The notes below the pieces were generated by a model, which searched no databases, was not told the DNA's origin, and saw only the letters and a list, made by a program, of their open reading frames with translations. Below, in pieces: positions 6,777 to 64,000 of a stretch of DNA of 64,000 bases. Location of the stretch: positions 1,364,001 through 1,428,000 of the forward strand of contig CM035354.1 of the NCBI GenBank assembly GCA_020137815.1, in the 5' to 3' direction. A program made the translations under genes and the position numbers. The stretch is from Hormiphora californensis. Lineage: Eukaryota > Animalia > Ctenophora. Position 1 is the first letter of the stretch. Each line of letters begins with the position of its first letter.

Positions 6777-8091
6777 TAGAGATAGAAAGATTGAAGGATA
6801 ACAATTAACAATTAACGAGATATGCCGTTAATTATGGCAGTAGCCTAAAGGTGTTACCCCCGTGACACCACATGGGCCCGGGCATCCAAACTAATTTATT
6901 TAATTGGTTTTTGGACTTAATATATATGTACCTGTTCTGTAAGTTTTGATTGATCCACAAGAGATTTCAACTCTCCTCCATCGCACAGCTCCAGAAATAA
7001 ATAGAGATGCTGGAAAAGGGAGGGTTTGTTAGAAAAAGATAGAGATGCTGGGAAAGGGAGGGTTTGTTAGAAAAATATAGAAATGCTGGGAAAGGGAGGG
7101 TTTGTTAGAAATAGCTGGGAAACTGAATAAGATATACAGGGGGATGACCAAGTTATTGAGCGGCTTGCACTGAAAAAAGAAACTCGTGCAGGCATAGATG
7201 TTTTGCACCATCCCATATGTCTTTCTACTTGCTCTGTCTATCTTTCTATTTGACATCATGTCCCCAGTCCAGTGTCTAGTGTCAACCCGTAATTTTCAAG
7301 AAATTGTAGCGGTGTGTTTCAAAAAGAATAAGAAGAAATAATTCTACTACTTGCCAGGCTCTGACTGTAATATCACACCTCTTGCAGCCGCACCGGGCCC
7401 TCGGTGCGAAGAGGATAGTACTCTTATTTGAGACATTCTACTACATATAATATTTTGTATCAAAAGAGGGGGGGGGGCGGTCGACGTTTTCTCGATAATC
7501 TGCTGCATGTTGCGGCCGGTTCGTAAAGACAGTTTAGACAATGTGTATCTCACTCTGTGGCTGTTATATCTCACTCTGTACTTATAAAACCGCCGCTAAG
7601 ATAAATGTTATGATATATTTCTCCCACGTTATCAATCTGTCTTCTTTCAATCATACCATCCCATCTATCACTTTTCTCATCCTTCTTCTATACCTCTTCA
7701 CCTAGTATTCACTATACGTGAAGTCTAACATTATATCCGATTAAATATATAATGAGCATGAACTTCACGTCATGCTCTTCATGACTAGTTCCCACGATCC
7801 TGGGTGGGCTACCAACTACCAACACTTCCTCAGAATGCTTAGGAGTACTTGTTCTAGAGTGAACAATTGAGTTATTTAAAACACAGTAATTGTTCGATGA
7901 ACTACAGCTGCTACGAAGGAATGGTTTTCATTTCAATATGTGGCCTCCTATTCGTGAGAATACAGCTATCTCTCGAAAACCAAAAACAGTTTTCAAGTAA
8001 TTTCCACCTCATCTCAAGATGAATGATGGATCTATTCAAAGAGAGCTCTCTTGACCAGATCTGCTTGTCAAGTAGTGTACATTTGAGTGTG

Positions 8092-11004: not shown

Positions 11005-12911
11005 TCAGCAGTGATCCGTCAGCTTGAAATGTTCGTCATCCACTGTGCTGTAGATATGACCTTCATTGCTAAGGAACTCAATCGCAATCCGGATCTGGGG
11101 GAGGGAAACATTGATTATGACGTGGAATAACCCCTCGGAATTATTTGATATGATTTTAGAACTAGTGAGAGGCATTTAAAAACACTGTACAAACTACAAA
11201 CTTTCTGGTAGGCCTTGATGCTCTGCCCACTGTTCTCTGCCAGCAAAATCTTGGTAAATACTCACGTCATTCATGGGCATGGAGGTCGTTGATTGTATAT
11301 CCCTAACACTAAGTCCTGTTTGATTGTCAGGAGAACACTTCTTCAGTGCGCTATACACCTGGAGAGAATGGATTTGTTAAGATCTATCTCGGAGAATGGA
11401 AAACATTATGAACTCTGACAGAGAGGTTGAACAATTGGAGAACAGCCTCAGAGAATGTCAGGGGGTGGGGGAGGAGGGATAATACCTTGGTCTGTGTCAT
11501 GGTCATTCCAGGCATGGATCCTCCCTCACTCTGAGCAGCACCGCCGTTATTGTTGAATGTTCCTGAGCACAAATCAAGGAGTTAGTTTGGTTTTTTACGA
11601 GGAGGACACTGTTTGACCAAATCTTCAAGTGTTGCACTACTTTCAATTGACATGTTTCAAGCCCACGCAGGAAAACTCAAGAATGTTTATTGGTACAGAC
11701 ATAAGGAATCAAGACAGTTAACATAACCACTGTCCAACACTAACCTGCTGAGGAGACACCACCAGAGGCGGCCAGTTTAGATCCCATCTTAGGGGCCAGC
11801 TCCTTACCGCACATGAACCTAACCACAGAGAGTCTGTGAAGTAGGAACTCATTGTGGGACTTGATCTCCTTGATAGAGAACGCCATGATACTAGGTTGCT
11901 CCTTGACGAACCGGAGATGACCCACTACTCGGACGTAGCAGTTACTACGGGGGAGGGCACTCGCATCCTGACATGAGAGGTTGGAATGTGAGGTTAACAC
12001 ATAGAGGTGTGAGGTTGAGAATCGGGTGTAACTGTAATTTACAGGGAAAGAGACCGGGGGATATAATAATTCGTGTTACCCTGCTTACATCATTATCGTT
12101 CAAGAATTTCCTAATGTAGAGGGGTTCCGGTGCTGTCCTGTCACAGATGTGATACTCGTAACAAGTTGATCCCTCAGTGATGTCCATAATGTAGCCTACC
12201 ATTTCAACCTGCACAGGAGGGGTTATGACATGATGTAACCTACCATCTCAACCTGGACAGGGTGAAGTGGGGTTATGGTGGGGTTATGACAAGATGTAAC
12301 CTACCATCTCAACCTGGACAGGGTGAAGTGGGGTTATGGAATGGAAACAATCCTACTTGTATTACTACATTATCAGGACTTACCAAATGAAGATCAATGT
12401 TTTCCTTGAAGATGAACATGTCCTTATCAGCATTGTGAACAGCTCTCCTTATCATGCAGTTGGTTACGGGAGATAAACTCTCTGGCCTGTTATTCTGGGC
12501 TTTGCTGGCTGAAGGGGGGAGGTCACATCTCAATTAGAATACCACATGAATGAGGATCCTAGACAGTTTCTGTAGCAACAAGATGCACCTCAGTACTCTC
12601 TCTACTTACAACTCAAAGGTCCTACTACTCTCTCACTACTTACCGCCAGGGGAGGCTCCTGAAGTGTTGAACCCCCCTGCATCACCAAACCCTCCACTCT
12701 CTACTACTCTCCCATTACTCTCTCACTACTTACCACCAGGGGAGGCGCCTGAAGTGTTGAATCCCCCTGCATCACCAAACCCTCCACTCTCTACTACTCT
12801 CCCATTACTCTCTCACTACTTACCACCAGGGGAGGCTCCTGAAGTGTTGAATCCCCCTGCATCACCAAACCCTCCACCTGCCTGTGAACTACCAAAATCT
12901 CCTTGGAACAT
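11005..12911 (-). CDS. RPA2: Replication protein A 32-kDa subunit
   Basis: Exons 12911-12824, 12508-12384, 12208-12089, 11967-11745, 11562-11486, 11358-11266 and 11094-11005 join in phase. Gly/Ser-rich N-terminus, OB fold (YVRVVGHLR..NEFLLHRL), and winged-helix end FLSNEGHIYSTVDDEHFK. Confidence 0.95.
12622..12877 (-). repeat. 3 x 90-bp tandem repeat spanning the RPA2 exon-1 donor site
   Basis: Unit = last 54 nt of exon 1 + first 36 nt of intron. GTAAGT donors at 12823, 12733 and 12643. Confidence 0.95.
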
Positions 12912-12921
12912 TCTAGTAACA

Positions 12922-13312
12922 AGTGTTAGGGAACTTTGTGTGATATCGTGTTAGGACGTGTTAGGGAATTTTAGTGTGATATCGTGTTAGGGAATTTTAG
13001 TGTGATATGGTGTTAGGGAATTTTAGTGTGATATCGTGTTAGGGAATGTTAGTGTGATATCGTGTTAGGGAATTTTAGTGTGATATCGTGTTAGGGAATG
13101 TTAGTGTGATATCGTGTTAGGGAATGTTAGTGTGATATCGTGTTAGGGAATGTTAGTGTGATATCGTGTTAGGGAATGTTAGTGTGATATCGTGTTAGGG
13201 AATGTTAGTGTGATATCGTGTTAGGGAATTTTAGTGTGATATCGTGTTAGGGAATGTTAGTGTGATATCGTGTTAGGGAATGTTAGTGTGATATCGTGTT
13301 AGGGAATGTTAG
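12922..13312. repeat. 26-bp minisatellite (GTGTTAGGGAATGTTAGTGTGATATC), about 15 copies
   Basis: Direct inspection. Ends about 10 nt upstream of the RPA2 ATG. Confidence 0.95.
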
Positions 13313-13616: not shown

Positions 13617-16600
13617 TCATTGAGAAGATACAAATGTTTTAGGTATCTTATACTCAGTTAACAGAAGTTTAGTAGCATGTTTCCTCGCATCACCCTGTAC
13701 GAGCACCTCCTCACCCTTCACACCCTGCACTACACACGCACTGGACGATTGTAGTAGTTGGAGTTTTTGGGCCAGCTCCTTGCCCTCTATTCCAAAGATT
13801 GAAAAGTTTGAGATGAGGGTCACCACTTTGTTTCCCGTCCTTTTCTCCACCTTGTACTGTATTGGAGGCAACTTTCCCTTTACAGTAATGGGAATGCGAC
13901 CAGGGAGAGAGATCACGTAACACTGCCCAAAGGCTTGCTCCGCTCTTTGCATCACATCGTTCCATTTGCATCTCACGTCCTTGATCTTGGAAAGATCTGC
14001 TAGGTGAGGGTCTAGGGTTATCCGTGATTTGTCGCCATCCAGAACGAGGTTTTGTTGTCGGATGTAGTTAGTTAGACTTGCTCTGATTTCCTTCCGTGTG
14101 AGGATGTCACCCTTTTTATAGCCTGCGGAAACAGAGGTTTTTGTAGCCTGTGTGGAAACATAAGTTGAGAAAGAGGGATTTATTTCTTGGTCTGACAGTA
14201 ACATAATAAGAACTGTGCAAAAGCTAGACCGTATCATATGAAACAATGAAAGCTGCAAAACCTACCAAACTTAGAAAAGAATTTAGCAGCATGTGCGTTA
14301 CAAGTGAATGCCTGAACAACAGCTATATCTTCCTCCTCTTCATCCTCCTCCTCCTCCTCTTTCTCCAGTCTCTTGATACCACGAAGTAGCAGGTGGGTGA
14401 AGTTGATTTCAGTGATACTCTGTACACCTGGGCGAGGGGGGGGGGGGGTCATGGGAGTGGGGTTATACACTGTATAATATACAGTGAGGATGGGAGATGT
14501 GTTACGGAGGATCAAACATTAATATTGGAAGAGTGGCCATCCCTTTTAGTATCAGAATGGAGGATAATCTAATGAGAAGAGTGTCTCAATTCTTGCTTGC
14601 TTGTTCTTTATGTTCTAACCCTCGGAGTGATAGGGTCGAACAAGGCAAACCTTTCTTCTGCTCCTTCACGGTTAGTAATCCAGTCTCCTGTAGTTCCTTC
14701 AGGAGTGTCCCCAACTTCTTCCACTTGGTATGCTTTATCTCAACTTGGTGTTCACAGCATCCCTAAATAATGGTTTGGTAACAAAGTTACCCCTCCCTTG
14801 CCAGCACGCGAAGGGGTAAATAACGGTTTGGTAAGAATTAATCAGTGCCAGTTGCAACCCTACAACTTATGGGAAGCAACATATGCTAACATGTCAAATG
14901 TTCTGTTCAGAAAACTGAATTATTGCACTGGAGAAGGTTGGCGACAGCCTCCAGTGTTTACGAATAAAAGGATTACTCACCTTTACATGCTGACTATAAA
15001 AAGCGCTCGTTAAAATAGGCAGATCCGTCTTCTTGATACTTGTCTTAATGGCCCGATAACATCCCTCTAATAGTATCTGGTCCTTGTTTAACTCCTCCTC
15101 TTCTTCTTCTACTGTTGCTTCCATTTCTCCGAGTTGTTCAGTTATCTCTGTTACCCCATCTTGCTCCTCAGAGGCGGTAGTGGGTTGCTCATCTTCAACT
15201 CTGGTTTCTTCAGCTAAAACTGTAAAATGGTAAGTGGTTTTAGTTGCCAACAATTTGAAGTAGTTTCTCTCTAATTTCGTCGAGAGCATAACACTTGCCT
15301 TGTTTGAACAAAACAACATTTCAAACAATATAAACCTACCAGGGAATTCTTCTTGAGACTGTGAAACATTATAATCAGGTAGCGGGAGCTGCGGCATCTT
15401 ATCTTTAGGTCCAAAATGCCACAGTTGATCAAGATAAACTTGGTAGACAATAATCCCCTTGCCTTTCATGCCTGCTGCCAAGGCCTCTCCCCTGCCCACT
15501 GCCCAAATACCTACTGCCATAGCTGCTCCTGAGTTAGTCGAGCATACTGAGACTACCTGGAGAGGGAGAGTAACGGTTTGAGGACCATCAGGCGAGCCAA
15601 GTCTTGAATTGACCAAATTGCAGTCCCGCTTTTTGAAGCCACAACTCGGGTCCGCGCGTCATTTTGGCGCTTCTACAGGAGTTCCAGGGGGGCCTTTCAG
15701 TTTAAGAGTGTCTTCGCGCGTTACAGTCAGAGTCTAGTGAGCTTGTCGGCAACACTGGGACACAAAATGTGTCGCAACGCCACAGTTAACATTAATGAAT
15801 TAATATTCTATCGATAATGAATCATGAAACATGATGATGAGTTGATAAACACAGTTCACACAACATTCTCTACTCACATCTCCAGCCTGCCAGTCAGCAG
15901 GTAAAGAATGGTGAAGTATGCCTGGTAACATAACATCAGCTCCACCAACAAGCCTATCCAGAACATTTAGGGGCACCATAACACGGGGCACTGGGGAATA
16001 CGATGTTACACATTTGGACTGGTGCCAATATTAATCACTTACACAGATCAGGCACTTTCCAAAGTGTGTAGACAGTTGGGATTGGGATTTCACCTTCCAG
16101 GGTCACAAACATTGGTGTCTTATCGAGGCAGTGAACCTGGAAAATACACACTTATTGTTGAAAAATGTAGAGAGCTAAAAACTTAACTGAACTGTTCGTA
16201 CTGCCTCGACAGTCTACGTTAAAAACGGTTCAAAAACATCTCCCGTATTGAATCCTTGAGTGCTCGGATGATAGATGCGCTCTTCAAAAACTAACTACCT
16301 CAATCATTCCCAGGGTTGTATCATGGGGTAGAACTCTAGTGATTGTAATGTTGGCCTTGTTGCTAAGTAGCTCACTAATCTCAGGGTGACTGGAGAAACA
16401 TTGCTCAACTAGAGCACGGAACTTCTTCCTGTTGTGGAAATATTTGGGTCAGGGGATTTGGGTCAGGGGATTTGGGTCAGGGGATTTGGGTCAGGAGATT
16501 TGGGTCAGGGGATTTGGGTCAGGAGATTTGGGCCAGGGGATTTGGGTCAGGAGATTTGGGTCAGGGGATTTTCTGTTCGAGATTTGGGCCAGGAGATTTG

Positions 16601-18469: not shown

Positions 18470-19665
18470 TTAAACTTTCCAACCTAACCCCGTACATTCC
18501 CCAGGATTTACCCGATGGTATATGTGGACGATATACGTGGCAAGTTTGTTGAGGACCGGGTGGCCTGGGGCTGGGGTTGCCACATACAGTCTAATCATCC
18601 TATATAATGCAGTCGTAAACCATCTGACGTTGTGGATTTTAGCAATCCTGAGTCCTTTCAGGTCCTCGGAAATCTCCTCCGAACCTGAACAAAAATGGTT
18701 AGTCAAACAAGAAAACTTAGATTTGAGAGCTAGTTAAAAATTACCCCCAATTACCCTAGTATCAATCACTTGATCCTCTCGTCGCTCACCTTTCGTTGCA
18801 GCCATTCGGGTGCGCTTATAATAGGGATGTACCTAGTAATCTCCCGATCCCACAGGTCCGTTGATAGTTCTTCCTCGATTGTGTCCCAACCATTGGGGTC
18901 TTTCGCAGGACCCGAGAGACCGACATCAGACTTCGTAAAAATCCCCAGATCCTCAGTCAAGTGTTTGAATGGCAGTTCATTGTGGTGGATCAAGCACACA
19001 TTGAACTGGAGCGTTCTCACGGCCAGGGACTGAAAATGTGCCAGCGCTCCCACTTCCCTTCCAAGCAGGATACCCCGTGCAGGAAGTTGGGGCATACATT
19101 GGAGATGTACCAATGGGTGGTTGTGACCATATCCCGGGACCAGGCAGGACACCCCTGACCCCATGCAGGAAGTTAGGGCATACGTTGGAGATGTACCTGA
19201 AACATGGTATAGGTGTTACATTTTCATGAGAGGATGGAATTTACAAAAACAAGTACTTGGTGATATCAGTATATTGAAAGGGAAATATCACTTACGCCAT
19301 TCGTTTCCTGCCGGGGTCCTCCTCCATGGACACGGAAGAGGAGCGTTGAATCTGACAAACAACTCTCTCTGACACCGGTCGTTAGTGCCATTTCAATCCT
19401 TGTTGAAGAACCTTGGCTTGTGTAGCACCTCTATACAGGACCCTACTGTCTCGACAATAGCCTCTGATCCTGCGATGGATAGCAGTTTGACCAACACCTC
19501 CCTCAGGCCAATGGGACATTTCTTCTCGCGGATTATCTCCTGGAGGCGCCGATCAAATGGGATATGAGCAGGGTAGTCAACAATATCCGCTTTTAGTTGG
19601 TCCACCGCTTCCGGCCGCAGATGACTGAAAATAGAAAGGGTTAAAATCAGTTTTGGCAATGACAA
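18470..19665 (-). mobile_element. Fragments of further hAT-superfamily-like transposases
   Basis: LQFNVCLIHHNELPFKHL (CxxHxNE), HNVRWFTT..IRLYV, and SEAIVETVGS resembling a hAT dimerisation motif. Fragmented and interrupted. Confidence 0.55.
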
Positions 19666-21791: not shown

Positions 21792-24700
21792 TCAACTGCC
21801 AACCGTATTTTTCCTTCGTTTCAATTCCAAATGTTCATCAATGCGCTTTCTCAGGGAAAGGTGAAAATCTTGAATCACCTCAACCATACTAGAGTTTATA
21901 ACTTTAGCGGGGACAAAGGGGAGTTTGAGGTCACAGTTGACGACATAAGTTAGTTTGACTGATCCGTCTAGGTCCGGGAAGAAGACATAGCCACATGGCC
22001 CGTTGCAGCCTCTGGAGAGGGAGAGATAATGTCAATTAGTACAACACGAGGGTAGCAAACTTAACAACTTTTATGATGAAATTTACTGAAATGTTATATT
22101 TTACCTGACATATGACTTGGAGACAGGTTTTACAGGATCGTCTATGTCTCTGTTCACTATGAAGAACATGTCTCGCTCCTTTGCCCAGTATCGTAACGTC
22201 AGAAACTCTCTGGGTAAGAGAGGGATGTTGATTCAGCTTTGTGAGATGGGAGTGAGATTCTAGGGGTATTAATTCCAAATATAGAAGGGGATATGGGATA
22301 ATTTCAGCTCAATGTGCTGCAATAGGGGCATAGTATTATTATAGAGGATTGGATAAGGTGATATCTCTACCAAACCTTTCTAATTTCTATATTTGCCTCT
22401 TTCTCTCTCTTTCCATATCTATCGCTGACACACAATCCCAGTAATTGTGATGGTCATTTTGCTATGGGAAAGCCATACACACAACTCATCATTACACTCA
22501 AAACAATTCCACTCATTCGCTCTAGTATAGTCTCTCTCCTTCAACATTCAAAACATCAACACACACATATTCAGTCGTCTGTGGTTTAGACATACCTACA
22601 GAGAACACACAGAGACTAGAGATAGAGAAAAAAAAGAAGTAGAGAGAGACAAATAAGAAACAATCAAGCCACATCACCACGAACACCCATTAATTAATCC
22701 CCAATTTACTGCGTTTACCTGCTTTTAATAAGACCACCGGCTCCATCGACTCCAATACTGTAAATAATATCCATTCGTGAGTTTAGTCTCTCTACCTCTT
22801 CCAGCTGTGTGGGAAATGTTAAAAGTGTTAAAAGAGGGTGTTAAAATAATGAATGTATGAGTGTAACATAAATCATGAGGGCCTTCTCTATTTCTTGTAA
22901 TGTCATACTGGAATTATGCCCGCATTGAACTTGTTTTTATGTTCTAACAAGCTCGCGAAAAGGGGTTCGAGCTAGGCAATGAACTTGTATACCCCTAAAA
23001 TAATTAGGCTTGGGGTATCCCCTTTTTTAATGGAGAACGCAAGAGAGGGGGAAACTGTGCCTGATCGTAAACCAATATCTCACCTCGATAATGCCTTTAT
23101 TCCAGGACACTGCCCCGGAAATCTGTCTATACAAAACATCATATAAATCCTCAAGAGAACAGAAAAAGTTGGACTCGCTGAGAAATATCTTATTGGGCAT
23201 TTTCCGTTGTGCCCGACTGAAAACTTTGACCCCTTCTTTCTCTGACTCTGTTGTCCATCCGTCAGGCCAGAATACTGTTTCTCTTAGTTGTCCCATGGCA
23301 TCTACTGATACTTCGTAGAGCCTTTTACCCTGGATGGAGAGGAGGCGGTTAGAGAGATGGAGATTAGAGAGGGAAGTGAGATGCAGAGTTTCGGGCATCC
23401 ATCCAATGTCATGGGTAGTGGAGAAAACGTGATAAATAGCATGAATATTATGAGTCGAGTGCTGTAAATACACATATTTTGGGTGACAAGTCCCATGTTC
23501 ACAGTAAACAGTTGTAGTACATGTTAATATATATGCTACTCAAGAAGCAACTACAGACATTGGAATACACACTGGAAAGTAATCAGTGTTTTATATCGGA
23601 ACAAGATTTTTAATATCTTCTCTGGCTGATAATCTCACTTTCTCTCTCACACATACACGCCCTACTGTTTAACAGTGAAGGGGAAACATACAGCGGGCAG
23701 TGCAGGTCACGGTTGTGGAAGAATGGATTGGTTAAATATCAATGAATGAGATCTGTTCAGGATTAAATAGGGAGGAAAATTAGAAAAATATATCTGGCGA
23801 GGGCCGGGCTCGAACCGTCAACCTCTGGTTTTCGCGTCCATTGTTCTACCTCAATAAGTAGAGCAATGGATGCGAAACCCAGAGGTTGTCGGTTCGAGCC
23901 CGGCCATCGCCAGTTTTTTTTTCTAATTTTCCTCCCTACTTAATCCTGAACAGATCTCATTCATTGATAGTGTTTTATATCCATACAAAGCTTCTTCTAG
24001 GAGACACGTGTGAATTGTGAAAGCTACATGTGAATCTGACAATTGTAGGGGAATGTTATGAAATTGATATGTTCCAACTTACCCTGTAGTCTAAGTTTGA
24101 TACGTCCTCTGGTGGTAATGCAGCACCTGAAACAGAAGAAATAGAAGAAATAGGGTTACATATACCAGGAACTACATACCATATTAAATTATATCCCACA
24201 AATTATATCCCCTTTATCAAAAGATTATCTATGTTATTGTCCACCCCCACCCCCAAGTATTAGTATTATTATGGGCACCTGGTATGTGGATTGGGGAGAT
24301 TAACCCCCCCCCACCCCCACCCCCAAGTATTAGGTCCCCTGTTATTATTATGGGCACCTGGTATGTGAATTGGGGGAGCAGCGTGCCCCCCCACCCCCCC
24401 CCCAAGATCCCCTATATTGGATATTATTGTGGGCACCTCGTATGTGGATTGGGGGAGATTACCCCCACCCACCCCCCACCCACCCCCCTGTTATTATGGG
24501 CACCTGGTATGTGGATTGGGGGAGCGGCGTGTTTTCAAAAGATAATCTTTCTAGATTACCCCCCCCCCCCCACCCCCAAGTATTAGATCCCCTGTTATTA
24601 CTATGGGCACCTGGTATGTGAATTGGGGGAGCGGCGTGTTTTCTTTGATATTGTCCACCCCCCCCCCCCCCCCCACAAGTATTAGATCCCCTGTTATTAT

Positions 24701-25916
24701 GGGCACCTGGTATGTGGATTGGGGGAGATTACCCCCACCCCCACCCCCCAAGTATTAGTATTATTATGGGCACCTGGTATGTGGATTGGGGGAGCGGCGT
24801 GAACCCCCCCCCCCAAGATCCCCTATATTGGATATTATTATGAGCACCTGGTATGTGGATTGGGGGAGCGGCGTGAACCCCCCCACCCCCCCCCCCCCCC
24901 CCCCCGAAGATCCCCTATTATATTGGATATTATTATGAGCACCTGGTATGTGGATTGGGGGAGCAGCGTGTTTTCTTTTGGAACTTGACCTCAGCCTTCT
25001 AATCATCATCTAATGATGGGGCGCTGTGAGACAGGGTCGAACAGGGCAACTAATATGGCAGCTTGAATTGTTCAAACAGTAGGGAAACAGGAGACTCAAG
25101 CAAGAAGACAGTACCAAGCGGCTGGTAGCAATACAAAGTGAGAAAAGTGAAAGTGAGAAAAGTGGAAATAGTGCACACAGACATCGCATTTAGCAGTCTA
25201 CATATTCGACGTAGTGGGGATTATAATCGAATTTATTGAGAAAACTGGGAATAGAGAAAATACGGGCGATGCATCAGCACATGTAGGGAATGTATAACAA
25301 TGGATTACCCCAGATACACTGGATTATTTGAATATTTGGAGATCACAATTTCGACAATGGATCAAGAAGTATTATGGGCTGTGTAGTGTGTCACAGTGTT
25401 TGAAATATTAGAGTGAATATAGGCTTTATGCAGGTAGAATATACACGCTAATGAAGCAAAGAGAACTGCTGCAGCAGCTCATACAGTGCACGAGAGAGCT
25501 AATGTATAGTCCGAGATTGCAGGGAGAGAGGGAGAGAGGGAGAGAGAGAGAAACAGACTACAGAGAGAGAGGGGGAAATTAAGGTATAGCGAGAGAGAAA
25601 GGGAACTGTAAGATAACAATAAGGCAGCTGTGCAGTTAGCTCCCTTTCTTTTTTCCCAAGGAAATTTCACAACACTAAATCTGAAGGACGTCATAGGAAG
25701 TACGTCATAGGAACCTGAGATGCGACGTATCTCAGGTTTCTATGACGTCCAGAGCGAAAAAAAAATCGGAAAGACTGGTGAAGCAACAATTTACCAAACA
25801 ACTCAAAATGTGCTGGATCACCACAAAATACTGAAAATAGCTCTTAATTCACATCATCAGTACTGCACACACATCACGGACACAGCTCGCAGCTGTTTTA
25901 GGATCATCTGACAATT

Positions 25917-26965: not shown

Positions 26966-29900
26966 GGGGGAGAGAGACACTAGACAGTTATCGCATTTCC
27001 TCTCTATCCCGATTCAGGACAGACCTGTGCTATCTCAGATACTGTACGTGGTGTGGAATTAAATCCCAATCAAAAGGTTGAAGAAACTGAAGATGGTTTC
27101 AGAAGAGTACCTTGATTACTAATCAGGACTCCATGAGACCATCTTTAGTCTAATGAGATTAGAAGAGAATACTGGTTTCAACGAACACACAAAAAGTGAT
27201 AGCAAGGAGAGAGAGGATACGAATTGACAGCAATACTACCATGTCGACTGAGTCTGCAGCAATCCCAGTCGCCAGCTGGTGCACCGTGTATTATCACCTT
27301 ATGTTGTAGAGCTGAGAGGCGACTTGAGAGGTACACGCACCTGACTTATCACCTCATTTTTATTGAACGCTATATTTGTTATACCAGTGCAGCACCAGTT
27401 GTGTTTGCCATATTTCTTTGTCACGAGGCCCAATCACGAGGCCCAATATTCCAATAGTGACTTTATCACACACACACACACACCTCCACTTTTCGAACAT
27501 AGTTTCAAGTTGTCGTGGTGGTTTCTGATTTCACTCCAAACAAAAGTCGTACGATTTTTATCAGTCTGTTGCACCCCATATGATATGCAGCTTCCATACA
27601 CGCACATTGCTAGCTGAAGACGCAACACAAGTTGACATAGAAGATACAGGTAGAGGAGAAAAAGGGAGAACAAAGAATTCAGATTGAATGTCAATCACAA
27701 TCCATTATATATATCGTGTTACTACGGCCAAAGATGCACCTAAAATTCGGGTAGCTAGACCTACTATAACAGCTGTACTGTGTGTGCTTATAGCATGATT
27801 CATTGGGGAGAAACCGAAACGGGGGATAGTGCGAGACATAACCACGATCCCCAATCATCCCCCAGAATGCAATCTAGTTATTACTTCTTGATCTACCGAA
27901 CCAGATCAGTGACCCACACAAGGCATTACCTCCGGAAATCGCCCCCAGACTGCAAACCAATTAATTATTAATATTACCTTCTAATCTAGGAATTACCTCC
28001 AGAAATCACCCCCAGACTATAATCATATTAATTATTCAAATTACCTACTTAATAACCTTCCTAATTAATTATTAATATAACCTCCTAATCTAGACATTAC
28101 CTCCGGGGGTAGGAGGGATGGTTGCAGAGGGAGTTTGGAATGCTGAGTAGTTAAATACACTCTCTGGACCCGTTCCAGTGTAGACCCTGAAAATAATAAA
28201 CATCTCATGATCATTTGGTGTACATGATATAATAATAATATATGCTGATATTATGAACAAAGAACACATCAACAACAGACCTTGATGTGGTTAAGTACTC
28301 GGAGAGTGTAATACACTCTCATACACTTTAAGTGTATGAGTTTTAATACTCATGGCTCACGCATGCTTTTGCTGTCTGACATGAAATCTTACCCGCCCGA
28401 CAGTAGCGGTGTAGTCTCACTGTTGTATGATCTGGGTCGGAGGTTACGTGTAACCTGGTTCTCCACCTTCAGGACTTTAGTTTCAAATAGCCAAACCTCA
28501 GTCCAACATAATACAAAGGAGGCCAGGAGGAGACTGTACGTCTCAAATGTATTATTCTGAAACGGAATTCTGAATCAAATCAAACCATAAAACATACTAC
28601 TGGTCCACTGATTATTGGAGATTGATATTTGATATCAACTAGCATATTTCATATTTGGCCAAACTTACATCAACTTTATCAAAAAGTATTAGTTTTACAA
28701 AAACATAAGCTGTGGAAGCAACTGTTGTTACCTGTCGGGGGGAGAATAGTTAGAATTAGAAAGAAAGTAAATACATTTGATTTGTGTAGGTAATGATAAA
28801 CAACTTAGAAATATAACATTCTCTGTTGATAAACTTTTATAGGTAGATTCGCAACATCTGTTATTTGTAATTCAACTTGAAATCTGTTGCACTTACTATC
28901 ACAGTGATCTGAAGTTTGCTCATGATAACCCAGTAGTGTAGGATAAGAACTGCAGATCGTACCCAACTCAATAACTAGAACACGGGAAATTAGGAGTTTA
29001 GTTCGTAGTGTCAAACCCAACTCAATAACTAGAACACGGGAAATTAGGAGTTTCGTCCGTAGTGTCGAACCCAATTGTAGAACGGGAAATTAGGAGTTTA
29101 TTCCATGTGTGACTGCCCCTTAAGTTATGTTCTAACCCTCCTTTACATTGTAAAAGAGTTGTCTAACAAGGCAAGACTGCCCCAGTGTTGAGAGAGATAA
29201 AGAACTTACTAAGAGATCTGCCATGGAGTGTTTGTAGGAAAAATGTTTAACAGCCTCATCCCAAGCTTTTGGTAAATCTTTGTAAGTATTCTGAGGGGAT
29301 AAAACATATTCTCAACAAACCTTTTTAGAGCAAATATTTAAATTCTTTTTTAGACAAGCAACTGCACATGTTTCACATCACTTACGATTGCTATGATAAC
29401 CCACAGAATGCTCATTAGTAAAAAATCAAAAACACAGCAAATGCTAAAAAGTCGCCGAGCTGAACTTCGTTGTTGGGGTAAAACCTCGTCTGTGATATAG
29501 TTTCCGGCTGCATGGGGAAGTATAGTGTTGGTTCGGAATTATAGGACACACAGCCAAATGTTGAACCTTACACACTGCATTTAGAACTTGGTTCGAACAA
29601 GGAGACCCCGCACACGCACAGTGGTAATTTACTATACGTCGTTAATTACCAAAGAGAACCAGGATCCTGCACAGTTTTAATATCTAAGTCATTAGAAGTG
29701 TCACTTACCTGTTGAAGGAATATAAAGGTAGCTGTCTGAGGAGCGAGGTGGGGTAGCTGTCACACTATAGTTGTGCAAACTGGTCGGGCCACTGAAATAG
29801 TATTGGTTACTAAGGTAACTAGGTCAGTTGCTATGGTAGCTGTCACACTATAGTTGTGCAAACTGGTCGGGCCACTGAAATAATATTGGTTACTAAGGTA

Positions 29901-30324
29901 ACTAGGTTAGTTGCTATGGTAGCTGTCACACTGTAGTTGTGCAAACTGGTCGGGCCACTGAAATAGTATTGGTTACTAAGGTAACTAGGTTAGTTGCTAT
30001 GGTAGCTGTCACACTATAGTTGTGCAAACTGGTCGGGCCACTGAAATAATATTGGTTACTAAGGTAACTAGGTTAGTTGCTATGGTAGCTGTCACACTAT
30101 AGTTGTGCAAACTGGTCGGGCCACTGAAATAATGTAAGTAGTAATAATATACTGCTTAATAAACTTTCAAGGATTTGAATATTTCTTGTTAGGGACGGTG
30201 TATATTCCAATATGTACCTTGAACTAGCGCCTGACACTGCTGATGGATTCATCTGGGAGAGGATTTCCTGTGCCGTAACGTGTGCCTGAAATGCTCGTTC
30301 ATCTTCATAGCCTCCAGTATTCAT
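21792..30324 (-). CDS. STARD3: StAR-related lipid transfer protein 3 (MLN64): MENTAL + START domains
   Basis: 13 in-phase exons: 30324-30218, 29791-29709, 29489-29386 (SARRLFSICCVFDFLLMSILWVI), 29290-29210, 28974-28897, 28731-28669 (VTTVASTAYVFVKLIL), 28556-28393 (SFVLCWTEVWLFETKVL), 28186-28101, 24126-24083, 23329-23084, 22804-22719 (GAGGLIKSR), 22209-22105 (EFLTLR) and 22011-21792 (RGCNGPCGY..NCDLK). Confidence 0.92.
23737..23969. mobile_element. Palindrome of two head-to-head tRNA-derived (SINE-like) arms
   Basis: The right arm reads AGTAGAGCA..AGAGGTTGTCGGTTCGAGCCCGGCCATCGCCA (D-arm end, T-loop/B-box, CCA) followed by a T-rich tail. The left arm is its reverse complement with about 10 differences. 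TA at both ends. Confidence 0.8.
24235..24975. repeat. Irregular tandem array, 9 copies of TTATTATGRGCACCTGGTATGTGGATTGGGG with poly-C spacers
   Basis: Direct inspection. In a STARD3 intron about 110 nt from the 24126 acceptor. Confidence 0.9.
29752..30131 (-). repeat. 5 x 83-bp tandem repeat spanning the STARD3 exon-2 acceptor
   Basis: TTTCAG|TGGCCCGACC.. recurs with exon-equivalent starts at 30123, 30040, 29957, 29874 and 29791 (the real one). Confidence 0.95.
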
Positions 30325-35076: not shown

Positions 35077-38000
35077 AAGATTACAAGATTACAAGATTAC
35101 AAATAAGTTTTAGTATACATAACAAATGAATACAACGCACTCAGCAGAGCTTCCGCGTGATAAAATGATATTCCCTATATGAGTGAACTACTTCCCCTCA
35201 GTGAGCAGGGCAACGAGGGAGTTATCTCTAGGGCTCGAGTATCCTCTGACAGGTGGAAAGTCTGGTATGGTAGCAAGGAAGTCTCCAAGTGTGACTTTTA
35301 GGTTCTCGATTGATGTTGCCAGCCGTACTTCCTCGGGCATCCTGTTAAAGAGTTGAACCGCTCTAACTCCGAATGATGCCCGTAGCTGTATGAGCGGCGC
35401 CATACCCCATCAGATGGGTCGCGGCGCCAGACAGTCCCGTAGCGTCTGGACTGATTTCTGTGCCGATGTGATGATCCGAGGGACAACTGCTTTCGGACCG
35501 TGTCGATGGTGGACGTAGAAGGATATGTTCGTGCTGTTAGGTGCTAGCCCCTTGTATATCTTCCACATATGTATGATATCTTTCCCGTCTTCTCTGCAAA
35601 GAAAGTATCCTGAGGTGGGCTAATCGTTCCCAGTAATTCATGCCTTCACAGTCTGTGATTCTCCGTGTGAAGAAACGTTGGATTCCCTCGATCTTTGCAA
35701 TCTCGCCAGTTTGGCATGGCGACCATAGTGGCGAGCAGTATTCTAGCTTCGGCCGAATGAGCGATTTCAGTAAGGTAACCATGGTTGCTGTAGATCTGTC
35801 TCTGAACACTCCTAGGACCCATCCAGCTAATCTTTTGGCTTCTCTGGTGATGATACCGATGTGTGTTGTCCACGATGCGTCATTGGTCATGTGGATACCC
35901 AGATCTTTCACACAGTGTGCAGGGCTAATGTCCTCACCATTTGTATTGTAGTATCGATAGTTTTCCACATTGAAGGGAAGAACTCGTAGAAGCTATGTTT
36001 TGTTCAGGGTGTAGTTGAGAATTTCGAACTTGTCCTCATGTAGAAGCATGTTGTTCTTCTTTGACCAATCGGCGATTCTGTCGAGGTCTCCCTGAAGTGA
36101 TTTCATGTCCTCTGCTTGTTCGATCGATTGCCTGCTCTTCGTGTCGTCTGCAAACGTTAGTGTACCACCCAGCGTGCAAGCGGCCAAATCACTAACATAG
36201 ATAATAAACAGAAGTGGACCCAGCACTGAGCCCTGGATCACACTACTGATGACATATTCTGGTCTGGAGCAGTAGCCCTCCGTCACTACCGTCTGTGCTC
36301 TACCTGTAAGGAAGGCCTCGATCCAGTTCAACAGTTTTCCTCGTATGCCGTATCTTTGCAGCTTGCCCAGTAGGATTCGAATATCGACTTTATCGAATGC
36401 TTTAGCAAAATCGATATAGGCCACATCTACTTCGTGGCCATTGTTCAGATCCTCTAGGATTGCATCGTAATGGTTGAGTAGTTGCGTCAGACAGCTTCTA
36501 CCCGACCGGAATCCATGCTGCTCCTCGTTTATGATCCCTGCCTTTTCCACAAAGTCCGCTAGTTGACTTCTTACCACTCGTTCGAAGGTTTTAGTGACGT
36601 GGCTCGTCAGTGCCACTGGGCGGTAGTTCTCTGGCAGACTCTTATTGCCCTTCTTGAAAATGGGTGCAATTTGTTGTTTCTTCAGTTCGGCGGGAATGAA
36701 CCCGCGGTGAAAGGATTGGTTCCACAATATCCATAGTGGATAGCAAAGTTTATCCCTGGCCTCGTGGAGAATCAGTGATGGAATATCGCCTTTGGGTGCT
36801 GCGGAATGTGGGTTTAGCTCCTTCAAGGCCCCTTCGATGATTGCAGGGGAAAGTTCAATATCTGTCAACTCGGCTTTCCTCTCTTCGATATCCATTAGGG
36901 CGTTTTCTACGTTGACTAGGGAGGGGTCACTGAAAACTTTAACATACTGGTCCTGGAGTATTTCAGCTTTCCTCCGTGGATCATCCGTCAGCTCTCCACT
37001 CTGTGACAGTAATGGTCCAACTGTCGACTGTACTTTTCTTTTCCTCTTCGCAAAAGAGTAAAAAGCTCTGGGATTCTTCTTGATCTGTGCCACTGCTTTG
37101 TCTTCCTCAGCATTTATACTTCGGGTAATGTGTTCCTTGATATTGGTGATGATCTCAGCTGCAAGGGCTTCTAGTTTAGCAACTCTGGTCTGGCCGGCTC
37201 CCTTCTTCTGTAGCTTCTTTATTCGTCTGTCGATCCTCCTCCTCTTTGATTTCAACTTGGTTAGTGCATTGTCCTTAACAAGGTGGGAGTAGTCCTGGAT
37301 TTTCTTCAGTGGGGCACTGGAGCATGTGACCTGAAGGACAGTGAGGGTTAGTAGGTTTGTGAATGCTGTGAGCCTATCAATGTTTTCAAGTGATTCACAC
37401 AATTCCCAAAGAACATCCCAATCAATATCACTAAGCAAGTCCCTCAGTTTATTCATATCCGATTTGTGATAACACACTCCTTCGAATGACCAACGATCTA
37501 GTTTTTTCTTCTTAAAGTGTGGAGTGCATGTCATGTTATACCCTAGTACACCGGCTACTGTTTTGTGATCTGACATACTAATGGTTGCTTCAACCTCAGT
37601 TTTGATAAAGTAGTCCGGTCTATTAGTCAAAATTACATCAAGCAAACTGGACTCTCTTGTTGCATCGTCGACAACTTGACATAGGAAATTTTGTTGTGTA
37701 AAGTTCTCTGTTGCTGCTGATATTCTGTCTTCTCTGTCTCCCCCCAGGGTTGAAAGATCCCAATTGTGGTATGGTAGGTTTAGGTCCCCCATGATGTAGA
37801 GATCAGGGACAGTTCATTCGTGGGAGTGCTTGTTTATAAAGGCCTGTAGTGTCTCAAGCAAGTCTTGGTAATCACTGGTGCGGTAGATTGAGGCAACTAT
37901 GGTGTGACACCTAGCAATGTACACAGCAACCATGTTGTTGAAGTTGTCTCCCCAAGAAGTTTTATCAGTGACTATCAGCGAGCCATGAACGAACAGAGCA

Positions 38001-41049: not shown

Positions 41050-42835
41050 CTACTGCTCGGGGCATTTGCAGACGAAAGGTCGTTTGTAGTGGATGAAGGA
41101 ATCGTCCCATCTTCCGTGATCTCGGAAAATTCCAGCGCAATCCTGACCTCCGGGGAATCTCTGCATATCGTCCGGTTGTTGTTTGTCCCAGTTGGTCCAC
41201 TGTACCAATATTTCCATCAAGATCAATCCAGACATCCTCCTGCTCCAAATCACTAGCACCGATCCACAGCTAGGGAAGAGGGGGGGTTACTAGGGGGTGT
41301 TACTAGGGGTTACTAGGTGTTACTAGGGAGTAGGGGTTACCAGGGGGTGTTACTAGGGGTTACTAGGGGTTACTAGGGGGTGTTACTAGGGGTTACCAGG
41401 GGGTGTTACTAGGGGTTACTAGGTGTTAGAATCCACAGCTGGGGGGGGGGCTTACTAGGGGTTACAAATGGTGAGGGGGGTGGGGGGGGGGGCTCCAAAT
41501 CGCTAGGGTCGCGTCGGTTTTCGGGTGATTAGGGGAGGGGGTGGCCGGTAGGTATTATGGTCGGTTGTTGCCTGTTTTATGATCCGGGGAGGGGGTCGGG
41601 GGAGATGGGGGTTATGGGTTACTTATTAGATAGAGACGAACTGTATTGGAATTCTGAGCTATTACTACCTTATAATTTACTAATTTCACTTACCCAGTTC
41701 TCGTGGGCAAACTTCCTGGCATTAGGATGGGACTCGAAACTCTTCTGGATGTCAGACAGGAGTTGGGCATTCTCCTCCGCACTCTTTGGGAAGGCCAACA
41801 CCATACCCATATCCTGGCATGTCTGGACGGCCGTGGTCCAGTTCACGTACTCATACACAGGTGCAAATACAACATGACCAATGCCGTAGACATCCTCGCA
41901 GGTCTGATCAGGAACCCTGATTTCAATGTCGATCTCAATGTTGGTCCCCTTGCAGCAGTCCCTGATGACACACCTGTAGTTATCCAGGTGATCTTCAGTT
42001 ACCTCCGGGATGAAGAGGGTCGCCTTACCAGATCCAATCACTCCCATCATATCACCCACCTTATCTGGAATGGGGGGGGTGTTAGTGGGGGGGGGGATCC
42101 AATAACTCCCATCATCTCACCCACCTTATCTGGAATGGGGGTAGGGGTGTTAGTGGGGGGGGGGGGGTGTGTGTTAGTGGGGGGAATCCAATAACTCCCA
42201 TCATCTCACCGATCTTATCTGGAATGGGGGGGGGGGGGGAGGTTGACAAGGATGAAATTTAGGGCGGTTATCGAGATTCAATAGAAGACAAATACTCAAT
42301 ATATATGGTGGTGGTCAAGCCAGGAAGGATAGTGTTTTAATAGAAGACAAATACTAAGCAGCAATACTGGGCTAGTATCTAACTAATTAGTCTTTAGTTA
42401 GTGAATTAACTTACCTTTTCCTACACCGGTGGTCTTGTACCAGATAACATTGGGGTCTGATCCAGCGTGGTTATGGGCGGCACACACAACGGAAACCTTC
42501 TGTCCTAGCTCCACCTCAAGTACCTCAGGGGGCCTCATTATAACCTCAATCTCACCAGTTGACTTGGTGCAGAAGGTGTTGGACCTTTGGGCAACTGTGG
42601 AGAGAGGAGGGGGTTAGTGGGTAACTGTGGATGGAAAGAGAGAGAGAGAGAGAGGAGGTTAGTTTTGGGGTTTTTAGATGGGGCCGAGCTTTAGATTTAA
42701 TAAGAACTACGAGAGCAATAAGTCTGCCACAGTACAGTTACTTATTGGTACAGTACCACCATGGTATACAGTACTAAGTGGGTGTGACTCACCTGCAAGA
42801 GCGAGAAGCCCAGCTAGAATGATAACTCGGATCAT
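41050..42835 (-). CDS. Secreted Ig-domain + C-type lectin protein (apparent 1-nt frameshift in last exon)
   Basis: Exons 42835-42793 (signal peptide MIRVIILAGLLALA), 42594-42415 (VSVVC..VIWYK), 42064-41694 (TLFI..DNYRC; NWTTAVQTC..LA..EEN) and 41269-41050 (LWIG..W, then after a frame change WTNW..QPD..C..WDD..FVC). Confidence 0.85.
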
Positions 42836-43788: not shown

Positions 43789-46700
43789 ATGGGTAAACAA
43801 GAAGCCGGGGGTCTGAGGAGTTTTGTGGCGGGAGGTACTGGTGGGGTGTGCTGTGTTGCTTCTGGACAACCATTCGATACCATCAAGGTATGAATGATGA
43901 TATATCATCTGACCCCCTGTGACTTCGTAACCAAGGTATGAATGATAATATACATCACCATACATCACCCACCTATAGTATCTTAGGTGGAAGACCTCTT
44001 TTTGTATTTACTAACACACCAATAACTCTCTGTTACTCCCCAACAACTGCGTTAACCAATAATTTCTCCCCCAGGTCCGAATGCAAAACCAGGTCGGCGG
44101 TGCGCTCTACAAAAATAGTATTGATTGTACTGTAAAGACCATACGGAATGAGGTGAGAACTGAGACAATCCGCCATTAAATTCAACCATCTAATTATCAG
44201 ATAATCGCAGTGTTTGTTCTATTTAGGTTTTCAACCCGCCCTGTGTAACATTTCAGGGATTTTTCGCCCTCTACAAAGGGATGGCAGCACCCCTCGTAGG
44301 AGTAGTCCCTATATTTGCTGTTAACTTCCTCGGCTATTCCCACGGCAAGAGTCTTCAGCTTATGAACTCTAAAAGCCAAACTCTGAGGTTAGTAATGCAT
44401 TGTTAGGTGTGCTGCTTCTCTCAGACTCAGGAGTAGAAAGGATTATAAAAAGAGATGCGTAGTTTTTCAAATAAACGGGTCAATATGAAATTATTATTCA
44501 AGAATATAATAAGCGCTATTGCTTTACACCTGGTGGCTTTTCTCTTGTTCTATAGAGTACAATTCCATGCTGATGAGTTAGACTAGTTTTTATTCAAAGG
44601 AAAACTGAGTTTTCTCTTAAAATAAACACTAGTCTAATATAATATGGAGTAATCTCATGGTAATATTCGACATTATCTCCTATAATAGTTAAATTATGAT
44701 ATAGTGGTCAATGTGGTGTCATGATGTAGTTTATAGGTCCTTGGTCATCTAGTTCATTAAAAGGGCACATAGGATGGTAAATTTGAATTATCGTTAGACA
44801 GATCAATAATTGTTATAGACTAAGATCAGTAACTATTACACGTGACTCAGTATAATTGTCGGGAAGATATAGACGTATTATTGAAGCTTCACACACATGA
44901 AGTTCCTGTCACCCACATCATTACCATTTCACTTGCCATTCTACGCCCGGTGTATCTAAGACAGCCGACATACTGGGAGTATATTTCATGTAGCATTTCT
45001 CATGATTACCATCCTATTCTCCCTATTTTCCTACATTTTGCCACCCATTTCTCACCCCCCTCCCCCATTTCTCACCCTCCCTTCCTCCCCCATTTCTCAC
45101 CCTCCCTCCCTCAGTCCGTTACAACATGGTTTTGCTGGTTCTCTGGGGGGCCTCTACATGACTGCCCTGATAGCTCCTGGTGAACGGATCAAGTGTCTGC
45201 TTCAGGTATTAAACTAGGGCAGTATTAGAGAGGGAGCTACCATGGTTATTAGTACCGGGATATCAAGAGGGCGGGTGGTGGAGGCCAAGAGAGGCCGAGA
45301 GAGAGAGAAGTGCGTTGTGGGCCTAATTAGTAGTTGGTGCGTTGTGGGTGAGCCATCGGCACCCTCTAACTCTGGACTCTGGAGAGAGAGAACCGTTCCC
45401 AGTTCCTACTCTGGAGAGAGAGAGAGATAGAGAGAGAGAACCGCACAGCTTTCAATGAGACTCGACGTACCTCCCTCAAAAGCTGCTCAAAACTCTTTCT
45501 AATTGGTCTAGCCACACCTAGCCATACTATGATGTAATTTAACAGTAGTTTTCCACCAACACCACCAGTAGGACTGGCACCACACTGGGAAATGGCCCCA
45601 GATCATTGGCCTGCTGGTACCACTTCTCAGTTCTCACTCCCTCCTAGATCCAGACGACTGGTCCTGCTAAGTACAGCGGTCCCCCTCCCTCCCTCCCAGA
45701 TCTAACTAACAGATCTAATTCCCTCTTCCCTCCTAGATCCAGACGACTGGTCCTGCTAAGTACAGCGGTCCAATGACCCCATTCCCTCTAACTAACAGAT
45801 CTAATTCCCTCTTCCTTCCTAGATCCAGACGACTGGTGCTGCTAAATATAGTGGTCCCCCTCCCTCCCTCCCAGATCCAACTAACAGATCTAATTCCCTC
45901 TTCCCTCCTAGATCCAGACGACTGGTCCTGCTAAGTACAGCGGTCCCCCTCCCTCCCTCCCAGATCCAACTAGCAGATATAATTCCCTCTTCCCTCCCCT
46001 TCCTAGATCCAGACGACTGGTCCTGCTAAGTACAGCGGTCCAATGGATGTACTAAAGCAGAGTTACAGGGAGGGAGGAATAAGGAATGTAATGCGAGGAA
46101 CAGTCATTACCGCTGTCAGAGGTACAAATATTAATAATATTAATAATTAATACTAGTGTAATACAAATACTATTTAATACAAAATGCAACTTACAAGTGA
46201 GGTCCAATCTTGTTCCCTAATATTAGATAATAGATAGATGTACATGAGTGACACTCATTGAGTGTTGAATCGATGTTCCATTTAAAATCTTTCTCAGACT
46301 CTCTGTCACCAATACATATACTCCATTACCCCCCTCCCATCCAGATATGCCAGCCTCATTCTGCTAACAGTGACCTATTCCCCCATCCAGATATGCCAGC
46401 CTCAGGGTGCTACTTTGCTGCGTATGAGCTGACTAAATCCAGATTTAGGGCGGCTAATGGCAGTGATGATCTCGCGTTCTGGCAAGTGCTTGTTGCTGGC
46501 GGGTTCGCTGGGTGGGCTAACTGGGCCTGGGGTATCGCCCCTGATGTTGTGAAGACTAGATACCAGACAGCCCCTGAGGGGAAATACAAGAGTGCCATGA
46601 GCGTAGTTCCTGAACTGGTATGTGTGGTTTGGTGTTACCACGTGTTGTACAGTACACGTGTTGTGTGTAATTGTGTACCTTGTAGTTACACAAACTATTA

Positions 46701-48277: not shown

Positions 48278-48968
48278 GATGGTTGCTATGGTGACAGGAA
48301 GGTTGCTATGGTGACAGGATCTGATATTGCTGCTGTATCGATCACACAGTGGAGTATAGTTGCTATGGTTGCTATGGTAACAGGATGCTGCTACACAGTC
48401 GAGTATAGTTGGTGTTTGGTAGCTGCAGTGGGAGGTTGCTATGGTGACAGGATGCTGCTACACAGTGGAGTATAGTTGGTGTTTGGTAGCTGCAGTGGGA
48501 GGTTGCTATAGTGACAGGATGCTGCTACACAGTGGAGTATAGTTGGTGTTTGGTAGCTGCAGTGGGAGGTTGCTGTGGTGACAGGATGCTGCTACACAGT
48601 GGAGTATAGTTGGTGTTTGGTAGCTGCAGTGGGAGGTTGCTATAGTGACAGGATGCTGCTACACAGTGGAGTATAGTTGGTGTTTGGTAGCTGCAGTGGG
48701 AGGTTGCTATGGTGACAGGATGCTGCTACACAGTGGAGTATAGTTGGTGTTTGGTAGCTACAGTGGGAGGTTGCTATGGTGACAGGATGCTGCTACACAG
48801 TGGAGTATAGTTGGTGTTTGGTAGCTGCAGTGGGAGGTTGCTATGGTGACAGGATGCTGCTACACAGTGGAGTATAGTTGGTGTTTGGTAGCTGCAGTGG
48901 GAGGTTGCTATGGTGACAGGATGCTGCTACACAGTGGAGTATAGTTGGTGTTTGGTAGCTGCAGTGGG
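48278..48968 (-). repeat. 9 x 67-bp tandem repeat spanning the stop codon of the SLC25A20 paralogue, plus decayed partial copies
   Basis: Stop-equivalent CTA (+ strand) at 48391, 48458, 48525, 48592, 48659, 48726, 48793, 48860 and 48927. Confidence 0.95.
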
Positions 48969-63600: not shown

Positions 63601-64000
63601 TAGACAGGGAGACGCCGCCAGGTCGACGTGGGGATGTAAGTAAACGTCCTGCATCATAGAGGTGGGTTGAGTGTAGAACACCTTACGAACGGTGGGGATG
63701 GTTGACAGTGTGACGTCCTGCGTAGACAGTGTGGGGTTTAGCAGGGTTAGAACGTCCTGCACATTAACAGGGTCCAGTTAAAGCCGCATCAGGAGTACGG
63801 TGGGGGGGGTTAGACAGGGGTTAGAACAATTCGCCAGGAGGGGTTGACAGGGTAGAAGGCCACATGGACGGGTGGGGGGTTAGACAGGGGGTTAGAACGT
63901 CCCTTGCATCAGAGCAGGGGTGGGGGGGTTAGAACAGGGGGTTAGGAACAATTCCTGCATCAGTCGAGACAGGGGTGGGGGGTGTAGGACAGGGGGTTAG
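60631..64000. repeat. G-rich ~52-55-bp satellite (CCTGCATCAGTGAGACAGGGGTGGGGGGTTAGACAGGGGGTTAGAAC + AATT or GT)
   Basis: Dozens of copies running to the window end and becoming progressively noisier. Interrupted at ~62463-62787. Confidence 0.95.
62463..62787. mobile_element. MITE-like insertion inside the satellite
   Basis: Central inverted repeat TTTTTCGGTGCGCG..TCAGAGGCCT / AGGCCTCTGA..CGCGCACCGAAAAA and weakly inverted ends. Confidence 0.5.

Follow-up and report, generated by a model that had tools for sequence, protein, structure and literature searches.

Tandem copies of intron/exon borders have been described in amphioxus under the name of mirages, with units of 10–160 bp, copy numbers that differ between haplotypes, and normal splicing. 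The examples given in the main text of the two reports are Adh3, troponin C, the globins BflGb6 and BflGb9, and PGBD5 (PMC3087553, PMC3902484). Somatic instability has been reported for the Adh3 mirage, and the main text of the first report calls the generation of mirages unclear and invokes unequal or intra-strand crossing-over (PMC3087553). In human F7, a polymorphic 37-bp VNTR in intron 7 lies across an exon border, and splicing selects just the copy closest to the exon (PMC1557585). Inter-allelic, non-reciprocal exchange is behind most human minisatellite mutation (PMC2599865). The window analyzed here, a stretch of 64,000 nucleotides of the comb jelly Hormiphora californensis, carries a comparable array at the third exon of RPA2, with the following features:

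11005..12911, minus strand: whole RPA2 coding gene, seven exons and 271 codons, with five of the six joints present in the RNA contig X7 and an RPA_C match in the last exon
12384..12508, minus strand: RPA2 exon 2, whose intron 2 donor, GTAAGT, starts at 12383; the piece of X7 here is 12382–12508
12209..12383, minus strand: RPA2 intron 2, 175 nt in the window haplotype and about 108 nt, without the copies, in a second haplotype
12290..12339, minus strand: decoy 1, a 26-nt acceptor end plus exon-3 codons 1–8 (GAG, GGT, ATC, TTG), with a stop at codon 10
12229..12278, minus strand: decoy 2, a 26-nt acceptor end identical to that of decoy 1 plus codons 1–8 (GAG, GGT, ATC), with a stop at codon 10
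12209..12228, minus strand: working acceptor, with a branch-like motif common to the decoys, a different and shorter pyrimidine tract, and CAG
12089..12208, minus strand: RPA2 exon 3, beginning VEMVGYIM, an OB-fold strand

A protein search with exon 4 gave two matches, P0001 and P0002, at 95–96% identity, whose source identifiers ("sb/number") presumably denote comb-jelly gene models. P0002 matches human RPA32 (E 3e-12), and the last exon of the window gene matches Pfam RPA_C (E 2e-6, 28.7 bits, cut-off 22.6). Both the OB-fold D and the C-terminal winged helix of RPA32/RPA2 are therefore represented, and these matches identify the gene as RPA2 (RPA32), as the sequence-only reading had named it. 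Neither the whole of P0002 nor RPA2 exons 2 and 3 had a match in the Pfam search. A metagenome scan with P0002 reduced 125 pattern matches to one locus, which was rejected as it aligned only to an unrelated tail of the P0002 model; blastn of that locus against the window gave no match. The RPA2 introns have GT..AG ends and measure 121–315 nt. P0001 and P0002, which are related gene models, read through differing versions of the end of intron 3, which suggests that the 3′ part of this intron is also strongly different between alleles. Just upstream on the same strand lies an eIF2D-like gene (13617–15658, minus strand; SUI1, SWIB, and WH_eIF2D matches), and a minisatellite of 26 nt × 13.7 occupies 12957–13312 between the two genes.

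At its start (12208, minus strand), the working exon 3 reads GTT GAA ATG GTA GGC TAC ATT ATG. A copy at 12252 has GAG, GGT, and ATC at codons 2, 5, and 7 and encodes the same peptide, VEMVGYIM, and a copy at 12313 has these three codons as well, plus ATG>TTG at codon 8. The letters and coordinates of all three copies are as the sequence-only reading had reported them, including the silence of all three changes at 12252, and its estimate of an intron of about 175 nt consisting mostly of copies agrees with the 175 nt measured (12383–12209), 124 of which belong to the array. TRF describes the array as period 61, 2.0 copies, 98% match, and score 235; each 61-nt unit contains the 26-nt acceptor end, exon-3 codons 1–8, and a short filler, and both decoys reach TAA at codon 10. 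CAG directly precedes the working exon start and both copies. The acceptor had been described as triplicated, which is true of the branch-like motif and CAG, the only parts common to working and decoy acceptors, and not of the pyrimidine tract, which differs. Judged by their motifs, the acceptors of the decoys seem at least as strong as the working one: they have CAG, TAAC at −23 as a branch-like motif, and more pyrimidines in the tract (fraction 0.82 vs 0.71). A donor-like GTAGGT lies 9 nt into each copy (ATG|GTAGGT). RNA folding, run without a shuffle control, gave mean unpaired values of 0.39 and 0.36 for the decoys and 0.46 for the working site, and no clear masking of the decoys.

The RNA contig X7 spans intron 2 with a gap of exactly 175 nt and GT..AG ends, and uses the working acceptor (joint 12206/12382, cut +2). 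It is a metatranscriptome contig that could be from a sister species, and of its 638 exonic bases 31 are not those of the window, about 5% between alleles. The comparison covered six of the eight listed runs (X1, X2, and X5–X8), of which X8 yielded no matching contig, so that X7 is the one RNA contig for this gene. Since it has nine letters other than the window's in exon 3, X7 comes from another allele and may lack the copies. At a background divergence of the X7 type, at least three differences in eight codons have a probability of about 0.08.

In the genomic run X2, four contigs with no other letters tile 12146–12400 with exact 30-base overlaps. The depth is 40.6 over the 47-nt stretch common to both units and 21.9–22.6 over the unique pieces, and a shared stretch at double depth with unique pieces at single depth means that two copies lie on one haplotype. 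Runs X1 and X2 (also X3 and X4) represent one sample, possibly the source of the window, and X2 is therefore not an independent individual. A second haplotype (X2 records 3 and 7, depths 25 and 21) departs from the window sequence at 12217, rejoins it at 12337, and has an unrelated spacer between; computed from the overlapping loose ends of these records, its intron 2 is about 108 nt long and contains no copy. The same loose ends are found in X1. The tandem is heterozygous, with two copies on one haplotype and none on the other. The sequence-only reading would have been contradicted by variants occurring only as the single exon of the other haplotype and never in tandem, and the DNA contigs show them in tandem.

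Runs X5 and X6, which represent a second sample, contain a single-copy allele (X5 record 10, depth 169; X6 record 12), whose intron end in X5 record 10 is unrelated to that of the window and of the same kind as in the second haplotype of X2. A rarer allele, X5 record 9 (depth 65), has 64 extra letters and one spare copy. Along the gene, a common-type acceptor is followed by a decoy-like exon head, by the filler motif that the window also has, and then by a new acceptor with the exon, so that the old acceptor is retained upstream in this one-copy allele. The decoy-like head aligns to 12312–12269 with two other letters and is followed by nine unmatched letters, CAG, and the exon. Among the alleles seen in the run contigs, no single-copy allele bears the window's own acceptor.

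Three features of mirages are found at this locus: a tandem repeat across an exon–intron boundary (the 61-nt unit with an acceptor and 24 exon bases, the boundary being set by the RNA joint), AG/GT splice signals kept (CAG, pyrimidine tract, and TAAC in both copies), and length differing between haplotypes, the structural alleles in X2 and X5 having 0, 1, or 2 spare copies. According to the main text of the amphioxus reports, mirages likewise consist of tandem copies of an intron's 3′ end together with the 5′ portion of an exon, and also of donor borders, in a highly heterozygous host, with a boundary unit unlike the inner units. The 61-nt unit falls within the 10–72 bp range of Adh3, and haplotypes differ in copy number as in BflGb6 (6 and 3 copies). 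Unlike the amphioxus cases as presented there, the RPA2 array has only two spare copies and one allele has none, and most of the differences between its copies and the working exon are silent, with one letter traced to the working exon of another allele. In the main texts, neither "synonymous" nor "silent" appears in PMC3087553, and "synonymous" does not appear in PMC3902484. A literature search over titles and abstract beginnings, with most subscription papers outside its range, returned nothing on mirages of comb jellies, nor on silent changes that mirage copies owe to another allele.

The other systems share parts of this layout. The human F7 VNTR is also a polymorphic array across an exon border, but it lies on the donor side, has identical pseudo-sites, and was tested by experiment, whereas RPA2 intron 2 is affected on the acceptor side, has diverged copies, and is known from sequence (PMC1557585). 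Non-reciprocal inter-allelic transfer yields mosaic arrays in human minisatellites, as proposed here, yet it concerns established arrays, while the RPA2 case would be a birth or capping at an exon edge (PMC2599865). In the Rogers model of intron gain, a duplication similarly results in a surplus piece of exon, which splicing removes; RPA2, in contrast, gets no new intron, and an existing one is lengthened and its acceptor replaced (PMC3265369).

The origin of the silent letters was approached through the working exons of other alleles. In a listing that passes over differences close to contig ends, only two appear within 12120–12400, both some 30 bases or more away from the end of a piece in some run, although the records carry 2–7; the total of other letters in X7 is 7, the same as in X6. 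By counts, and taking X6 record 12 to be the same as X5 record 10, the single-copy allele differs from the window at four sites within 12188–12211 (codons 1–7), and the working exon of X5 record 9 differs, again by counts, at two. The peptide at the start of exon 3 is unchanged in P0002. X5 records 9 and 10 have their terminal 30 letters in common; in record 10, 21 of these are loose and the remaining nine cover 12203–12211, where the loose end of record 9 has the GAG form. Because these 30 letters are shared, the GAG of the decoys is placed at codon 2 of the single-copy working exon, a placement well supported by the geometry of contigs with 30-base overlaps. The two records branch at 12188, the ATT/ATC site, which shows that codon 7 differs between the working exons of the alleles, the branching giving the site and not its letter. 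One of the decoy letters, GAG, can thus be traced to the working exon of another allele, and GGT and ATC, approached through counts and geometry, are predicted there if the decoys come from another allele. The earlier suggestion that the decoys stem from another allele's exon is accordingly supported in part, by the four differing sites and by GAG. No clean donor allele was found, the working exon of record 9 being still two sites off the window.

RPA2 carries a heterozygous mirage with two tandem copies of the intron-2/exon-3 border, and on balance we consider it probable that its exon-like part came from a working allele other than that of the exon that follows. The structure belongs to the described mirage class, and what it likely adds is a clue to origin, namely that decoy and working exon come from different alleles via unequal exchange. 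Unequal exchange or one-ended repair between homologues would have joined an allele with GAG/GGT/ATC to a second allele's intron end and exon, and the joined unit would then have doubled. Two orders of events can be envisaged. In one, a break after codon 8 of allele A would be repaired by copying the intron end and codons 1–8 of homologue B, so that the acceptor and exon head of A would stay behind within the intron, as they lie in record 9; later the unit would double and the old acceptor be lost. In the other, it is on allele A that the array would grow, to be capped with the acceptor and exon of B through a crossover at the branch-like motif common to both. Both fit the data alike, the mechanism being deduced from the layout. 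If different alleles were joined, the silent changes would be ordinary allelic differences from a time when both versions coded, and would not have been selected in the decoy. The strong allele divergence at RPA2 fits the heterozygosity reported for a comb-jelly genome, 3.2% with indel-rich introns (PMC8527503).

As judged by reading frames, only the last of the three acceptors keeps the RPA2 protein intact, and it is the one predicted to be used in the carrier haplotype. A message spliced at a decoy would hit a stop after nine codons and be discarded, so that the array may be tolerated rather than functional and is probably harmless.

Arrays on splice junctions occur elsewhere in the window. 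A near-direct-repeat scan, set beside the TRF list, yielded 28 clusters, and nine junction-straddling arrays with a readable frame were tallied: those at RPA2 exons 3 and 1, three in two mitochondrial-carrier genes (named by Pfam Mito_carr), one at a kinase-like exon, and three at unnamed exons. Those other than RPA2 exon 3 are as follows:

12626..12877, minus strand: second RPA2 mirage, exon-1 end and donor, 90 nt × 2.8, all three exonic differences silent
45638–46045, plus strand: acceptor of a mitochondrial-carrier gene, five repeats, one unit with three silent and one replacement difference and three others with none
46336–46404, plus strand: next acceptor of the mitochondrial-carrier gene, doubled, from the repeat scan
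51212–51320, minus strand: exon end and donor of a second mitochondrial-carrier gene, doubled, three of three differences silent
6993–7111, minus strand: acceptor-straddling array of three copies, frame by eye
29752–30133, minus strand: acceptor-straddling array of five copies, frame by eye
42031–42230, minus strand: acceptor-straddling array of three copies, frame by eye
48367–48968, plus strand: acceptor-straddling array of nine copies, frame by eye

The RPA2 exon-1 donor array has the layout of the human F7 VNTR (PMC1557585). In the nine arrays, distinct codon differences between spare and working copies comprise 16 silent and seven replacement changes, with reading frames and working copies chosen by eye in four (7k, 30k, 42k, and 48k). 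The tally covers neither 19072–19197, where the working copy is unclear, nor 27.9k, 28.9k, 24.2–25.0k, and 60–63k, where frame or exon status is unclear. Pfam gave no match for the 7k, 19k, 30k, and 42k exons, and the 48k exon is too short to scan. Random change would give 23–27% silent differences (p 3e-6 to 3e-5 for the 16/7 tally). Slippage plus drift, with both copies drifting, would give 31–43%, for which p is 1e-4 to 1e-2 over all arrays, 8e-4 to 0.025 without the RPA2 exon-3 locus, and, where Pfam or PDB backs the gene (five arrays, with 12 silent differences among 14), 3e-5 to 1.5e-3; these pooled p-values overstate the number of independent events, because differences cluster. For the RPA2 exon-3 locus alone, p is 0.09–0.22 with three of four silent and 0.03–0.08 with three of three, and its silent bias against slippage plus drift is weak. 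In the exon-1 array, the spliced RNA of X7 has the letter of the middle decoy (no mismatches in 24 nt, vs one to the working copy). This presence of a middle-copy letter in the RNA of another allele, together with the odd unit at 45638–46045, favours import of whole units.

Other parts of the window carry related or separate features. At 19072–19197 (minus strand), a 40-nt coding-like stretch is doubled at 86-nt spacing, with three of three differences silent in frame and AG before the first copy only; a duplicated donor or a recently formed intron may account for it. Further arrays of medium period, in which motifs resemble splice signals, lie at 27921–28110 and 28961–29104 (minus strand), 24228–24978, and 60632–64000. 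A 606-codon frame at 35993–37813 (minus strand) belongs to a LINE-type element with endonuclease and reverse transcriptase matches.

Slippage on one chromosome may also have made the copies, followed by silent substitutions in the working exon under purifying selection and homogenisation of the decoys, with no second allele involved. Concerted evolution within clusters that excludes the boundary unit is known for the amphioxus globin mirage (PMC3087553), the RPA2 exon-3 locus alone is compatible with slippage (p 0.03–0.22), and the window haplotype is about 5% diverged throughout. We nevertheless regard this origin as unlikely. If GGT and ATC are the letters of the common allele, all three changes would be required on the working lineage, at a probability of 0.004–0.006; the pooled arrays speak against it (p 1e-4 to 1e-2), and a unit at 45.8 kb with four differences among identical units is hard to obtain by drift.

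It is quite improbable that the copies are in use, whether as poison acceptors whose premature stop tunes RPA2 output or as an in-frame micro-exon of 9 nt (VEM), with selection keeping the peptide. The decoys do have CAG, TAAC, and a pyrimidine tract richer than that of the working acceptor, and GTAGGT would end a micro-exon in each copy. However, neither the second haplotype nor the allele commonest in the second sample has the copies, which are therefore no fixed control element. Poison use would put no constraint on the peptide at all, and micro-exon use would leave codons 5–8 unconstrained and need introns of 70 plus 96 nt, or of 35 nt, in a gene whose introns measure 121–315 nt. Published mirages, moreover, leave splicing undisturbed (PMC3087553, PMC3902484).

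Although the sample is strongly heterozygous at RPA2 intron 2, stitching of the other haplotype's exon start into a false tandem during assembly is most improbable, since both copy junctions are spanned by short-read contigs with no other letters at the depth of a single haplotype, with twice that depth over the shared stretch, and since the intron end of the other haplotype is unlike the acceptor of the decoys. A gain of an intron through tandem duplication was rejected because single-copy haplotypes already have an intron at the same position, and mutually exclusive duplicated exons because only 24 of 120 exon bases are copied and a stop lies at codon 10.

With silent-only differences and three structural alleles, the inter-allelic origin preferred here is directly testable with phased genomes. 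If it is true, splice acceptors would be swappable wholesale between alleles, and spare exon heads would record past alleles. Such copies can also cause errors at exon edges in gene models, in the mapping of reads, and in variant calls. More tentatively, mirages in general might be scars of recombination between very divergent alleles. Where homologous introns are no longer alignable, exchange or break repair could start only in exons; it would then cross the exon edge, import the intron end and exon head of the homologue, and leave the former acceptor with its exon head stranded as a decoy. X5 record 9 would then be a one-step product. Such a process, if true, would account for the piling up of repeats on splice junctions in highly heterozygous marine animals, as well as for the appearance of coding selection in spare copies and for the turnover of 3′ splice sites within species.
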